Assembly: GCA_020632035.1 (NCBI GenBank)
Contig: JACKGG010000002.1
Location: 88,095-152,094, forward strand
DNA from: Candidatus Nomurabacteria bacterium
GTDB taxonomy: Bacteria > Patescibacteriota > Minisyncoccia > Phycocordibacterales > UBA918
DNA length: 64,000 nt
Direction of reading: 5' to 3'
The translations under genes were made by a program, and so were the position numbers. How positions within the stretch are numbered: position 1 is the stretch's first letter; the number at the start of each line of letters is the position of its first letter. The notes under the pieces are model-generated. The model searched no databases and was not told the DNA's origin. It saw nothing but the letters and a program-made list of their open reading frames with translations. Shown one piece after another: positions 8,194 through 56,149 of the stretch.

Positions 8194-8210
8194 GGAGCAG
8201 GCTCGGTCAC
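8194..8210. repeat. direct partial copy of the tRNA-Phe 3' segment (12 nt, GGAGCAGGCTCG) fused to GTCAC
   Basis: Matches the tRNA-Phe gene (antisense) at 8388-8399. The match stops inside the T-loop. It sits ~175 bp from the tRNA 3' end. Confidence 0.6.
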
Positions 8211-8312
8211 TCTCACGGCTATTTTCTTCGTAAACTCATAATATAGCTCGTTCCATTGACCTCCACTCGTCGCGTTCCTCGGCTCCGCCAGCGGACTTTA
8301 TCGCGACTCGGC

Positions 8313-8380
8313 TTCGAGCCTGCTTCCAAGCTACAAACGAAAACAGCCTATATGCGGAGCATATAGGCTGTACGTTTGTG
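8313..8380. repeat. inverted 19-nt copy of the tRNA-Phe 3' end (TTCGAGCCTGCTtCCAAGC) followed by a 48-nt perfect palindrome abutting the tRNA 3' end
   Basis: 8313-8331 reads in tRNA sense on the plus strand, opposite to the gene. The palindrome is TACAAACGAAAACAGCCTATATGC-GGAG-CATATAGGCTGTACGTTTGTG. Confidence 0.65.
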
Positions 8381-8451
8381 CTTGGGAGCAGGCTCGAACT
8401 GCTGACCCTTCGCTCTTCAGGCGAATGCTCTACCAACTGAGCTACCCAAGC
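8379..8451 (-). tRNA. tRNA-Phe (anticodon GAA)
   Basis: The reverse complement gives GCTTGGG-TA-GCTC-AGTTGGTA-GAGC-A-TTCGC-CTGAAGA-GCGAA-GGGTC-AGCAG-TTCGAGC-CTGCT-CCCAAGC-A. Confidence 0.85.
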
Positions 8452-8877: not shown

Positions 8878-8930
8878 GCCCCTTTAGTTAAATGGATATA
8901 ACCGCTCACTCAGAGCGGGCATTGTAGGCT
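8878..8930 (+). repeat. pseudo-tRNA: a copy of the 5' two-thirds of tRNA-Arg (acceptor, D-arm, anticodon arm with an altered loop, start of T-stem), followed by a 27-nt hairpin
   Basis: GCCCCTTTAGTTAAATGGATATAACCGCTCAC is identical to 9062-9093, then diverges. It lacks a T-arm and 3' acceptor. The hairpin CTGAAAAAG..CTTTTTCAG is at 8931-8957. Confidence 0.7.
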
Positions 8931-9061
8931 GAAAAAGACTGGGAGACTTTTTCAGAAGGTTAACTAGCATTTTATGACGTAAGGAAATAAAATGGTGATA
9001 ACCTATACTGATCTCGTAGAGATAGATTCCGTTGGAATCGAACCTATTGGTTACAATTGAA

Positions 9062-9136
9062 TACTTAAGCCCCTTTAGTTAAATGGATATAACCGCTCAC
9101 TCCTAACGAGCAGTTGTAGGTTCGATTCCTGCAGGG
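9062..9136 (+). tRNA. tRNA-Arg (anticodon CCT)
   Basis: GCCCCTT-TA-GTTA-AATGGATA-TAAC-C-GCTCA-CTCCTAA-CGAGC-AGTT-GTAGG-TTCGATT-CCTGC-AGGGGGC-A. There is one A·C mismatch at the base of the anticodon stem. Confidence 0.75.
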
Positions 9137-9340
9137 GGCACTAAAACACAACTCAACGGTCTTTGCGTTTTTCTTGTGTACCACAATCGTTTTGGTGCGC
9201 ACATCGTTCATGTACCCCTCGGGTGCTTGGCCGGGAAACATGCCAAGGCGCACTTTTTGGCGTAATCCTTGCTTGGTGTTCTCGGAAAGAGAATCGACAT
9301 AATATTTACTTTGTCCGAAAGCCATGCTCAACATGAACTT
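9137..9340 (-). pseudogene. remnant of a large serine recombinase (end of the catalytic domain through the start of the recombinase domain), truncated at the tRNA-Arg 3' end
   Basis: ..YYVDSLSENTKQGLRQKVRLGMFPGQAPEGY.. resembles the E-helix plus the G-x-x-P-x-GY start of the large-serine-recombinase 'recombinase' domain. The catalytic N-terminus and the C-terminal ~350 aa are missing. The open frame runs on into the tRNA. Confidence 0.4.
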
Positions 9341-9454
9341 TCTTATTGAAAGGGATTTTTGGTTTGCTTCGCCATTCATTACACAATACAAAAAGTACCA
9401 CATGTATCATGTAAACACTGAAAGCTATATCCCTGGAACGATATGTTGAAACAA

Positions 9455-15096: not shown

Positions 15097-15123
15097 TCCC
15101 GAGGTCTAACCTCGGGTTTTTTC
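15097..15123 (+). terminator. REP-like palindrome acting as an intrinsic terminator
   Basis: TTCCCGAGGTCTAACCTCGGGTTTTTT. It has the same CCCGAGGtc..gaCCTCGGG core as the REPs flanking the RAYT at 55.3-56.3 kb. Confidence 0.6.
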
Positions 15124-38507: not shown

Positions 38508-38583
38508 CAGGGACTCGAACTTTTATAGGTTTCTATATATAGCTCAAATGAATTTTCTGCCGGACAGGGACTCGGTCACGAAT
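38508..38583. repeat. direct partial copies of the tRNA-Gln 3' segment (13 nt at 38508-20; 18 nt at 38557-74), the second fused to GTCACGAAT
   Basis: CTGCCGGACAGGGACTCG is identical to 38735-38752 of the tRNA-Gln gene (antisense). The match ends in the T-loop. Confidence 0.65.
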
Positions 38584-38663
38584 AAATTTTCTACGAAAAT
38601 TTTTCTCGACCCCGACTCGCCGACAAGCCCTCCCTTCGGTCGTCTTGTATACCGGCTCCGTCT

Positions 38664-38718
38664 TTCGAGTCCCTGCGGTCAGGTAATTTAGTAAAACCCC
38701 AATGCATACGCATTGGGG
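38664..38718. repeat. inverted 12-nt copy of the tRNA-Gln T-arm (TTCGAGTCCCTG) plus a hairpin (CCCCAATGC-ATA-CGCATTGGGG) abutting the tRNA 3' end
   Basis: It reads in tRNA sense on the plus strand, whereas the gene is on the minus strand. Same layout as the Phe and CAT loci. Confidence 0.6.
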
Positions 38719-38733
38719 TCAAACTAAATTATG

Positions 38734-38804
38734 CTGCCGGACAGGGACTCGAACCCCGATAGACGGCACCAAAAACCGTAGTCCTACCATTAGACGATCC
38801 GGCA
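38734..38804 (-). tRNA. tRNA-Gln (anticodon TTG)
   Basis: The reverse complement gives TGCCGGA-TC-GTCT-AATGGTA-GGAC-T-ACGGT-TTTTGGT-GCCGT-CTAT-CGGGG-TTCGAGT-CCCTG-TCCGGCA-G. Confidence 0.8.
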
Positions 38805-46877: not shown

Positions 46878-46899
46878 GGACCGGAATCGAGTCACGAAT
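46878..46899. repeat. direct partial copy of the tRNA-CAT(47054..47124) T-arm (CCGGAATCGA) fused to GTCACGAAT
   Basis: Identical to 47063-47072 of the tRNA gene (antisense). The break falls in the T-loop. GTCACGAAT is the same 9-mer as at the tRNA-Gln locus. Confidence 0.55.
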
Positions 46900-46991
46900 C
46901 ACTAAGTATATTTATTCGGATTGCTCCAAATCTACAAGTGTTCTTGACCCCGCCTCAGCCTATTTCGTCTCCCAGACGAAGGCTTCCGGCC

Positions 46992-47050
46992 GTTCGATTC
47001 CTCCCGCTGGAATAAAAACAAAACCAGCATGAAGCTGGTTTTGTTTTTAT
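46992..47050. repeat. inverted partial copy of the tRNA-CAT 3' end (GTTCGATTCC-TCCCGC) plus a bidirectional terminator hairpin abutting the tRNA 3' end
   Basis: In tRNA sense on the plus strand. The hairpin is AAAACCAGC-ATGA-GCTGGTTTT with a T-run. Confidence 0.55.
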
Positions 47051-47053
47051 TTG

Positions 47054-47124
47054 TTGCGGGGCCCGGAATCGAACCGGGGTCTGGAGGTTATGAGCCTCCC
47101 GAGGTACCTCTCCTCTACCCCGCT
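47054..47124 (-). tRNA. tRNA with a CAT anticodon and an A1·A72 mismatch (initiator-like acceptor end; could also be Ile2)
   Basis: The reverse complement gives AGCGGGG-TA-GAGG-AGAGGTA-CCTC-G-GGAGG-CTCATAA-CCTCC-AGAC-CCCGG-TTCGATT-CCGGG-CCCCGCA-A. Position 1 A does not pair with 72 A. Confidence 0.7.
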
Positions 47125-55325: not shown

Positions 55326-55465
55326 GTCCCGAGGACCGAATTGTTATTTTTGTCCCGAGGTCGGTCCTCGGGACAAACAGACCTCGGGCAAAGTGGCATT
55401 AGAGAACATCAGGACAAAGCTTCATCCTATGCCCCGCTATCCCGAGGTCCGACCTCGGGATAGGT
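55326..55465. repeat. cluster of REP-type palindromes (GTCCCGAGGtcgGtCCTCGGGAC family) 3' of the RAYT gene
   Basis: Copies or half-copies at 55326-38, 55352-75, 55376-88 and 55438-65. Confidence 0.8.
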
Positions 55466-56130
55466 TTGCGCTTGAGTAGTCAAGCCAATGAGTGATCTGA
55501 TCATTGAAAGAATTTTCCTCCAGAAAGTATTGAGGAAAACTATCTTTAGAGAGAACATTAGACACAACTCTATTCACTCCCTGATAATCAAGGTAGCTTG
55601 AATATTTATATTCCTGCAAGTGTTTCAAAGCTTCATTTCTATTTTTAATACCAGTCTCTTTCCACTCTGGCTCAATTAATTTGATTGGATTTAGATGAAT
55701 GTACGAAAATAAATATTTTAGATATTCATCTGTATCAGCTCGCTTAGCTTTGTATCTACCTTCAAATAAGACACCTGTGCGATCATGTTTCTTATTAAAG
55801 TACATGGAGTATCCAGTTGAAAGTTTTTTCATAAACTGACTAATTCCTCCTTCGTTTACTTCTTTTATTAAAATATGAAAATGATTGGGCATTAATACGT
55901 AAGCACCAATGTCAACAAGGACCTTATTTCTATCAATTAAAAATAAATCGTCATATTTTTTACCTGCTTTATATTCATCCTTTATTGAAACAGGATTTGT
56001 ACTGTTGCATAAATACAGCAATGCCATAAAACGGTCATAGTCTGACTTTGTTTTGTATATTACCCTTTTCTCTGTACCTCGATTATAAATGTGGTAATAC
56101 TCATCGACAGCAATAGAGTTATCTTTCAAC
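55437..56130 (-). mobile_element. REP-associated tyrosine transposase (RAYT, IS200/IS605-like Y1 HuH transposase). The start is probably the internal Met (MLKDNS..), because the upstream part of the ORF reads through a REP palindrome.
   Basis: YHIYNRG, HuH motif MPNHFHILI, and a catalytic-Tyr region (RYKAKRADTDEYLKYLFSYIHLNP). REP palindromes flank it on both sides. Confidence 0.7.
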
Positions 56131-56149
56131 ATACAATTAATATACCACA

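Follow-up and report, generated by a model that had tools for sequence, protein, structure and literature searches.

The 3' flank of a tRNA-Phe gene was analysed in a stretch of 64,000 nucleotides from Candidatus Nomurabacteria bacterium (GenBank assembly GCA_020632035.1, contig JACKGG010000002.1, positions 88,095 to 152,094 of the forward strand), which is referred to below, at its full length, as the window. On balance, this flank, or tail, is best read as a complete copy of a small, protein-less and non-autonomous insertion unit that is specific for tRNA T-loops, replaces the tRNA 3' end, is moved in trans and is common throughout Patescibacteria. The family to which the unit (or module) belongs has tRNA-specific segments, a fixed junction between T55 and C56 and a fold that covaries on the tRNA-sense strand; the tRNA is kept, empty and occupied alleles as well as arrays occur, and no enzyme recurs beside the units.

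Organisation of the tRNA-Phe Tail

The tRNA-Phe gene lies on the minus strand, and its 3' side is therefore found at lower coordinates. The parts of the locus are the following.

8451 to 8379, minus strand: intact tRNA-Phe(GAA) (ARAGORN, which ends the gene at 8378; Rfam tRNA, 68.9 bits)
8206 to 8396, minus strand: whole unit of 191 nt, from T-loop C56 to GTGAC, with boundaries taken from homology with relatives
8333 to 8378, minus strand: two-tier terminator hairpin at the tip of the long arm; the same two-tier design stands behind tRNA-Gln and tRNA-Met
8313 to 8331, minus strand: inverted copy (a prime) of tRNA nt 54–72, GCTTGGAAGCAGGCTCGAA, matching the reverse complement of 8380–8398 at 18 of 19 positions
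8262 to 8312, minus strand: junction and arm P2, made up of AAGCCGAG, a UCGCG...CGCGA helix with an inner hairpin, and CGAGUGGA
8206 to 8261, minus strand: arm P3, with a GGUCA...UGAC base, a purine-rich 5 × 5 internal loop (AUGGA/GAGAG), an upper hairpin and the GTGAC end
8205 to 8194, minus strand: distal direct copy of tRNA C56–C67, 12 nt, CGAGCCTGCTCC

The final 19 nt of the gene (8396 to 8378, C56 to the discriminator plus one base) double as the first segment of the unit (a), and the inverted copy forms the 5' strand of a helix, P1, for which pairing is possible with the tRNA 3' half or with the distal direct copy. A preliminary description of the tail, made from the sequence alone, had noted both the inverted copy of tRNA nt 54–72 and a direct copy joined to GTCAC, and both were confirmed; on the plus strand, GGAGCAGGCTCG at 8194–8205 is identical to 8385–8396 and adjoins GTCAC (8206–8210) and then TCTCAC, and GTGAC (8210 to 8206) precedes the copy on the tRNA strand. 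Between the inverted copy and GTGAC lie about 100 nt with two hairpin arms, P3 being the conserved right end of the unit, and the hairpin reported earlier was found to be the imperfect upper part of P3 (about 8218–8251), the pairs of which covary in relatives. The palindrome touching the tRNA 3' end is also present, but its description as 48 nt and perfect was wrong, since it is an imperfect two-tier terminator with a perfect inner stem of 13 bp (8359–8371/8343–8355, 3-nt loop), an outer stem of 7 bp (8372–8378/8333–8339) and an asymmetric internal loop. The hairpin, with TTTTCGTTTGT after it on the tRNA strand, can be read as an intrinsic terminator; the expected G+C-rich hairpin and U-run are provided by 8371 to 8343 and then TTTTCGTTTGT, and account for one part of the tail only. 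The distal 12-nt copy can be read as a displaced older tRNA 3' end that was shortened or decayed after 12 nt, the full 19-nt distal repeat (CGAGCCTGCTCCCAAGCAC) being kept in relatives.

Folding of the tail had been proposed beforehand as a check, and the 191-nt unit on its own, from C56 to GTGAC, gave a circular/linear fold of −83.6 kcal/mol (z = −8.1 against dinucleotide shuffles). The fold is a closed three-arm junction with abutting ends, with the long hairpin arm at the start and P3 at the end. The corresponding stretches behind tRNA-Gln and tRNA-Met, begun a few bases inside the T-loop instead of at C56, gave z values of −6.6 and −7.1, respectively.

Distribution of Related Units

A k-mer check of all eight tRNAs of the window revealed the same layout behind tRNA-Gln and one tRNA-Met, with an inverted copy about 50–70 nt and a direct copy about 170–200 nt downstream of the tRNA, so that three of the eight tRNAs are occupied. 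The two further units are the following.

38557 to 38749, minus strand: unit behind tRNA-Gln(TTG) (38733–38804), nhmmer E = 1e-19
46881 to 47070, minus strand: unit behind tRNA-Met(CAT) (47053–47124), nhmmer E = 1e-13

The Gln unit comprises a terminator, an inverted copy (38664–38683), a domain of the type here called subfamily A, GTGAC (38575–38579) and an 18-nt direct copy (38557–38574), and the Met unit a terminator, a degenerate inverted copy, a subfamily-A domain with a long P3, GTGAC (46891–46895) and a 10-nt direct copy (46881–46890). Both tails share the blocks ...TCGAAAG-NCG-GAGC...GCGAG-NC-GGGGTCRAGAA...ATTCGTGAC, directly followed in each case by the T-loop remainder of the tail's own tRNA.

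A strict pattern built from these blocks was scanned against one genome per species and against viral contigs. In the species-representative genomes 110 matches were obtained, against about 0.5 expected by chance according to our own estimate, practically all of them in metagenome-assembled genomes (MAGs) of Patescibacteria labelled Paceibacterota, Kaiser-, Moranii-, Taylor-, Yanofsky- and Nomurabacteria, "Saccharibacteria" and others. The viral contigs gave no match to the pattern, and the Gln module gave none by blastn against phage and plasmid collections. A same-strand tRNA was called by ARAGORN 75–250 nt upstream (mostly 75–145 nt) at 72 of the 110 loci, with isotypes including Val, Asp, Pro, Gly, Leu, Ser, Glu, Tyr, Gln, Trp, Cys, His, Lys, Arg, Ile, Phe and Ala; many of the remaining matches were cut by the locus edge, and a few had a matching repeat and no called tRNA. 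The bases after GTGAC are those of the upstream tRNA from C56 onwards, with exact lengths peaking at 19–20 nt, one base beyond the discriminator, and with some longer repeats (21–63 nt) that run into the trailer. The suggestion that the direct copy is a junction-type duplication starting in the T-loop thus holds family-wide, the repeat always beginning at C56 directly after GTGAC, while the distal copy is free to decay. The minimal form of about 170–200 bp is the commonest state in the family; the size of about 175 bp that had seemed oddly small for an island is therefore normal, and complete, for a conserved structured unit. A strong terminator between tRNA and module was present in 34 of 73 units, including all three of the window, and absent from the other 39, and in 14 of the 73 a next same-strand tRNA follows, some units lying within tRNA operons. 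The domain is extremely conserved among distant lineages, and the base of P3 is invariant in sequence across phylum-level lineages.

The tRNA-Phe copy itself, which the subfamily-A nhmmer profile missed, was considered as a degenerate member of subfamily A; this was rejected, as it is a good member of a second subfamily, B. When metagenomes were scanned for the tRNA-Phe 3' end, 80 loci were obtained, about 50 of them with a direct copy 150–290 nt downstream (mostly 150–200 nt) and about 16 with neither a direct nor an inverted copy. The window tail aligned over its full length with seven tails (L143, L169, L146, L149, L201, L189 and L132), and L190 and L202 joined the subfamily through a search with its own (subfamily-B) profile. 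The common sequence of subfamily B is TCGAAGCCGAGUCGCG...CGCGACGAGUGGAGGUYAAUGGA...GAGAGUGAC, followed across the junction by CGAGCCUGCUCCCAAGCAC, and its 5' strand reproduces the 5' strands of the acceptor and of the T-stem. Intermediate forms exist. Additionally, two of the metagenome tRNA-Phe loci, L165 and L176, carry a third form of the module, with a right end …GCGACCGTCAGGA before C56 (GTCAGGA directly before C56) instead of GTGAC; in L176 a second module starts exactly at the end of the inverted-strand remnant CAGG of the first, the two being nested or fused.

Two other observations concern the Gln locus. A second, shorter copy of the tRNA-Gln T-arm (GTTCGAGTCCCTG, including G53–T55) lies at 38508–38520, 36 nt past the direct copy and without a preceding GTGAC, and is perhaps left over from an older or separate event. 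One MAG contig (L122, positions 1–420; GCA_020632025.1, JACKGK010000005.1) is 99.95% identical downstream and divergent upstream of about tRNA-Gln position 67, where it holds a tRNA-like GAGGTTCAGAACCGTAGTGGGCAGC, two GTGACCGA(G/A)G motifs and a partial open reading frame (ORF) of 72 aa; no tRNA was called there by ARAGORN and the partial ORF had no Pfam match. The divergence reflects either a further element at this tRNA or an artefact of the contig end.

A Covarying, Strand-Specific Fold

An alignment of 106 distinct subfamily-A copies (A3) was compared with controls in which the pairing partners had been slid. The structure derived from it starts with P1, in which tRNA 56–65 is paired with the upstream inverted strand, followed by the junction strand AAA, the helices P2a, P2b and P2c with a G-GA/GA internal loop, the junction strand GGG and finally P3, with the invariant base GUCG(A)GAA/UUC(G)UGAC. 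Paired cells made up 86.8% of the total (33–46% in the slid controls), cells changed on both sides numbered 782 (111–224 slid) and the covariation score was 0.426 (0.06–0.10 slid). The three-pair helix P2a alone was found as GCC/GGC (30 copies), GGC/GCC (29), GAC/GTC (17), AGC/GCT (6) and GTC/GAC (6). Positions 57/58 of P1 were Watson–Crick paired in 77 copies and formed tandem G.A pairs in 27 (of 107), and GNNA-type loops were also seen. The tRNA-sense strand folded better than its complement in all 107 copies (−44.4 versus −35.8 kcal/mol) and held 240 G.U pairs, as compared with 55 on the complement, which indicates that the fold belongs to the tRNA-sense strand, as RNA or as single-stranded DNA. 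Similarly, in the eight-sequence alignment of subfamily B (A4), 91.5% of the cells were paired, against 34–38% in the slid controls, and 10 pairs were changed on both sides. The compensatory changes in P2b were UA/CG, CG/UA and GC/AU, and the homologous P2a/P2b covary in the 106 subfamily-A copies.

Empty Sites, Arrays and the Probable Point of Insertion

The comparison of empty and occupied sites in relatives had been set as a test beforehand, and both alleles were found in close relatives. The pairs are relatives that share the same tRNA-Phe 3' end and do not include the window's own strain. Flanks 96–97% identical were observed between the empty locus L198, where tRNA-Phe is followed by its terminator and the downstream gene, and the occupied loci L165 and L176. 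In L165 there are 197 extra bp, with 29 nt present twice (from C56 to 11 nt past the tRNA); the native terminator and the gene stand after the distal copy, and the proximal terminator shares the outer stem of the native one and differs from it in the inner stem. A second, more distant case is that of L194 and L152. At the Gln locus the module was present in all strain contigs examined, and the empty allele was not found there. Short-read contigs of the window population stop inside the module or in the tRNA T-arm. A strain-level variant of the window's own tRNA-Phe tail was also observed (L002, positions 2520–2614; GCA_020428885.1, JAGQMB010000077.1) on a MAG contig that is 100% identical to the window over 2559 bp; a different terminator (AAATCCCGCTACGGCGGGATTT) and CTGCTTGG are joined directly to the last 24 nt of the window module, most of the domain being gone.

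Arrays of two or three modules occur in 22 of the 110 loci, in the order tRNA-module-copy-module-copy (L115 and L028), with a 202-aa HTH gene between modules (L106), or as tRNA-module-tRNA-module (L070, L083 and L110). The ORFs carried between modules encode HTH, DUF3800 and similar domains, with no recombinase domain among them, and at some loci accessory genes of 1–2.7 kb lie between tRNA and module. In the three loci with alternating tRNAs, L070 (Leu/Val), L083 (two tRNA-Arg) and L110 (Cys/Leu), neighbouring modules were 87–91% identical in the domain and different in their tRNA-specific strands, those of L070 and L110 differing in the P0 hairpin as well. This likeness may stem from local hopping with retargeting or from gene conversion, and in the case of the two Arg genes a joint duplication of tRNA and module is conceivable as well.

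The boundaries of the unit can be judged from the inverted strand. Of 36 sites (positions 56–65) at which the distal copy departs from the tRNA, 14 let the inverted strand pair with the tRNA only and 3 with the distal copy only; the inverted copy, noted earlier as able to pair with the nascent tRNA 3' half, does follow that half. Several loci have an inverted copy that exceeds the direct one in length (19 versus 12 nt in the window tRNA-Phe, 17 versus 9 nt in L031), and the inverted strand of the second module of L115 is perfectly complementary (21/21) to the preceding copy, even at bases of non-tRNA origin. Together with the self-contained three-arm fold, the pairing of the inverted strand supports a unit bounded by C56 and GTGAC, composed of its own tRNA 3' segment, terminator, inverted copy, domain and GTGAC and placed between T55 and C56, the distal repeat being the old end that was displaced.

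Search for an Enzyme and for Known Families

The origin through an integrase that had been suggested for the direct copy found no support. The 173 nt between tRNA-Phe and the distal repeat hold no such ORF, no integrase adjoined a module among 190 loci examined (neighbours identified by eye), and an integrase did not appear as a recurrent neighbour in the 110 related loci. A search of the Phe, Gln and Met tails against Rfam 15 (both strands, E up to 10) brought only tRNA to the gathering score, with no match of the three regions to a self-cleaving ribozyme, tmRNA, 6S, SRP or RNase P. Group I or II introns, retrons and T-boxes were rejected for their wrong size, the lack of an adjacent reverse transcriptase gene and the absence of an Rfam match. 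Neither was a fixed 19-bp target-site duplication tenable, since the repeats reach 63 nt, nor a miniature inverted-repeat transposable element, since the unit ends (CGANTCC... and ...GTGAC) do not form an inverted repeat and the direct repeats range in length from 19 to 63 nt. No description of the element was found in the full-text literature searched; the nearest paper deals with group I introns in Patescibacteria tRNAs at position 35/36, not in the T-loop (Nakagawa et al., PMC13011429).

A Y1_Tnp (IS200/RAYT-like) gene is present in the window at 55437–56132 on the minus strand, amid type IV pilus genes. Four hairpins CCCGAGGNCNNNCCTCGGG resembling repetitive extragenic palindromes (REP) flank it (55354, 55441, 56154 and 56235), and a fifth lies at 15098–15116; not one such hairpin would be expected by chance, and the arrangement is of the REP/RAYT type, here in a Patescibacteria genome. 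The gene is probably not the mobiliser of the modules, as its REP hairpins are its own and unrelated to them and no Y1 homolog was found in 1.29 Mb around modules.

Proposed Mechanism and Alternative Explanations

Read along the tRNA strand (8396 to 8206), the proposed unit would consist of a tRNA copy of its own, running from C56 to the 3' end, a trailer that usually contains an intrinsic terminator, an inverted copy of the same tRNA segment and a domain of about 100 nt with two hairpins that ends in GTGAC. Placed between T55 and C56 of the original gene, such a unit would leave the tRNA gene intact because it provides a 3' end and a terminator, and the displaced original 3' end would follow GTGAC as a direct repeat, free to decay. 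Movement may take place by excision and integration through a folded single-stranded intermediate (DNA or RNA) opened exactly at the junction of P3 and P1, in a reaction carried out by an enzyme acting in trans, for which the conserved domain would serve as the recognition or recombination module. Candidate chemistries are a structure-specific tyrosine recombinase, as in integration at integron attC sites or of the CTX-phage type, a Y1 HUH enzyme, as for IS200/IS605 and REP elements, or RNA self-cleavage and ligation.

Several results weigh against this proposal. ORF clustering around the 110 modules yielded no recurrent transposase or recombinase family, the recurrent neighbours, identified by eye, being the housekeeping proteins L19, RluD, IF-2, FtsE, RbfA and SmpB; with no enzyme linked to the units, the case for mobility is built on presence/absence and arrays, and no circular or excised form was seen. 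The evidence on the crossover is contradictory: the bias of the inverted strand towards the tRNA favours the T-loop position proposed in the preliminary description, but in L106 the inverted strand of each module fits the copy after it, which favours the 3' edge of the repeat. The extension of some repeats into the trailer fits recombination over a variable shared stretch and not a fixed staggered cut. In about half of the units a terminator is missing between tRNA and domain, and some units stand in tRNA operons, so that these units are probably transcribed and a function as RNA is possible. The extreme conservation of the domain in distant lineages would fit a host function too, and the proposal does not account for the service of one domain family to every tRNA isotype.

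The chief rival to the insertion unit, in our judgement rather unlikely yet deserving attention, is a functional non-coding RNA linked to the tRNA and transcribed with or after it, the spread of which would be secondary. Its fold would include a helix that mimics the acceptor/T-stem (tRNA 56–73 and its complement), with the T-loop replaced by the conserved three-way-junction domain, and it could act as a ribozyme cutting at the GUGAC-C56 junction, serve as a processing signal or as a decoy for a toxin or an enzyme that binds tRNA, or give rise to a defined 3' tRNA fragment. Such a role would agree with the strong covariation and G.U asymmetry of the tRNA-sense strand, the tandem G.A pairs at 57/58 (27 of 107 copies) and GNNA-type loops, the P3 base invariant across phylum-level lineages, the 39 of 73 units lacking an intervening terminator, the 14 of 73 followed by a same-strand tRNA, and the 5' strand of subfamily B that copies the acceptor and T-stem 5' strands. 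It agrees poorly with the strong terminator between tRNA and module in 34 of 73 units, all three window units included, with the patchy and polymorphic occupancy (three of eight tRNAs here; empty alleles at 96–97% identity), with arrays and cargo genes between modules, with a distal copy that decays freely and with the absence of an Rfam ribozyme or RNA family match.

A direct repeat of the tRNA 3' end that begins in the T-loop is the textbook mark of tRNA-targeting integrases, and the tail might accordingly be an ordinary scar of an integrase-mediated island or prophage, in which attL and attR were left after internal deletion as in a cis-mobilizable element (CIME) and the hairpins are incidental terminators or arm sites. 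The accessory genes of 1–2.7 kb at some loci would suit this explanation, which is nevertheless improbable, because a scar would not yield a common 100-nt domain with compensatory changes on one strand in over 100 species and at every isotype, the minimal form of about 170–200 bp is the commonest, no integrase was found, by eye, beside any of the 190 loci examined and phage, plasmid and viral sequences gave no match. Still less credible is a local origin without mobility, by tandem duplication of the tRNA 3' end and template switching in a quasi-palindrome that would generate the inverted copy, the other tails having arisen independently or by gene conversion. The sequence from T54 through the trailer to the inverted copy does form one long imperfect palindrome centred on the terminator loop, the L115 palindrome is perfect (21/21) with non-tRNA bases, repeats sometimes extend into the trailer, and neighbouring modules within one genome can be 87–91% identical in the domain only. 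Nonetheless, a conserved domain cannot arise de novo at each tRNA, and the inner stem of the proximal terminator in L165, which differs from the native one between flanks 96% identical to the empty allele, points to imported DNA and not to local duplication. A terminator accompanied by chance similarity has practically nothing in its favour beyond the good intrinsic terminator formed by the hairpin 8343–8371 and its T-run, and is refuted by the two matches to the tRNA (12 nt direct, 18/19 inverted), by a family that exceeds 100 copies and by the covariation. By our own arithmetic, the chance of an exact tRNA 12-mer within 300 nt is about 1e-3 and that of an inverted 19-mer copy with a single mismatch about 1e-6, and the same layout at two more window tRNAs and in more than 100 other genomes excludes chance.

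Comparison with Known Systems

The proposed insertion unit resembles the elements of P4-type tyrosine integrases that use the T-loop sublocation of tRNA genes, and the related CIMEs, in its insertion into a tRNA gene, the restoration of the tRNA 3' end by the element, the direct repeat from the T-loop, tandem accretion at one tRNA and occasional cargo. It differs from them in the lack of an integrase in cis at any examined locus, the usual size of about 170–200 bp, the covarying strand-specific domain abutting the junction, the use of one domain family for all isotypes and the internal inverted tRNA copy. Integron cassettes are likewise small units, with or without an ORF and with no recombinase of their own, that form arrays at a fixed docking site, and the attC recombination site is set by a single-strand fold and not by sequence alone, which may hold for the present units too, with their strand-specific fold (as single-stranded DNA or RNA) and their arrays. 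In contrast to attC, the R''/R' boxes (RYYYAAC and GTTRRRY) are absent and no intI/attI platform was seen; the junction reads GTGAC followed by CGANTCC, the T-loop GTTCGAR does not fit GTTRRRY, docking occurs at the tRNA T-loop, the domain sequence is strongly conserved and a three-arm junction takes the place of a single bulged hairpin.

The palindrome-associated transposable elements (PATEs) derived from IS200/IS605 and the REP elements, both served by Y1 HUH enzymes, are also non-autonomous and strand-specific with hairpins at both ends, and they insert 3' of a short conserved sequence, as the units do between GGTT and C of the T-loop; a Y1_Tnp gene, moreover, is present in the window. Its unrelated REP hairpins and the lack of a Y1 homolog near modules set the units apart, and so do the absence of a flanking repeat in IS200/IS605 insertions, as opposed to the one created here by the tRNA segment of the unit, and the fact that no guide pairing with a cleavage site was identified. 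R2 elements, with a ribozyme like that of hepatitis delta virus, and hammerhead retrozymes, which are bounded by their ribozymes and transcribed along with the RNA gene they target, share with the unit the location in an RNA gene and a boundary at a helical junction that uses the flanking target strand, the hammerhead also having a three-helix topology with a break between two helices. Here, by contrast, there is no reverse transcriptase, and the AAA and GGG junction strands of the core match no self-cleaving class in Rfam.

Other Repeats at tRNA Genes of the Window

Two further tRNA genes of the window show repeats of other kinds. At tRNA-Arg(CCT) (9069–9141, plus strand), a direct copy of the first 34 nt, up to the anticodon loop, lies 190 nt upstream (8878–8911), and an inverted T-arm fragment is found at 9034–9046; a 112-aa ORF overlapping this tRNA (9065–9403, minus strand) was considered as a recombinase fragment and discarded, as it had no Pfam match. 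In the region 1312–1905, four exact tandem repeats of 110 bp (starting at 1312, 1422, 1532 and 1642) stand directly upstream of tRNA-Val(GAC) (1752–1825), each composed of tRNA nt 1–22, a 36-nt foreign segment, tRNA nt 36–48 and another 40 nt. Downstream, at about 1841–1905, there is one more copy, a partial one, and only the last unit is called a tRNA by ARAGORN. This looks like serial rearrangement or integration at the tRNA 5' half, distinct from the T-loop modules.

Implications

The unit is probably a variant of the site-specific insertion element, with a substantial chance of being a new kind altogether. We tentatively put forward, as a possibility with less in its favour than the insertion unit as such, that these units are an unrecognised class of mobile elements, namely protein-less structured cassettes of 170–200 nt that dock at the universal tRNA T-loop and are opened and rejoined at the three-way junction, whether through RNA chemistry of their own or through an enzyme, from the host or supplied in trans, that acts on folded single strands; they would be integron- or viroid-like, pervasive in Patescibacteria and capable of carrying cargo. 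Patescibacteria have tiny genomes and few recognised mobile elements. A unit that fills a large share of the tRNA genes, three of eight in the window, would be a major unannotated component of such genomes. The units break short-read assemblies at tRNA genes, create hypervariable loci and can carry accessory genes. If they do move as folded single strands without an enzyme of their own, this would be a new way to target tRNA genes; if they are functional RNAs instead, they would constitute a widespread new class of RNA that mimics the acceptor/T-arm of the neighbouring tRNA.

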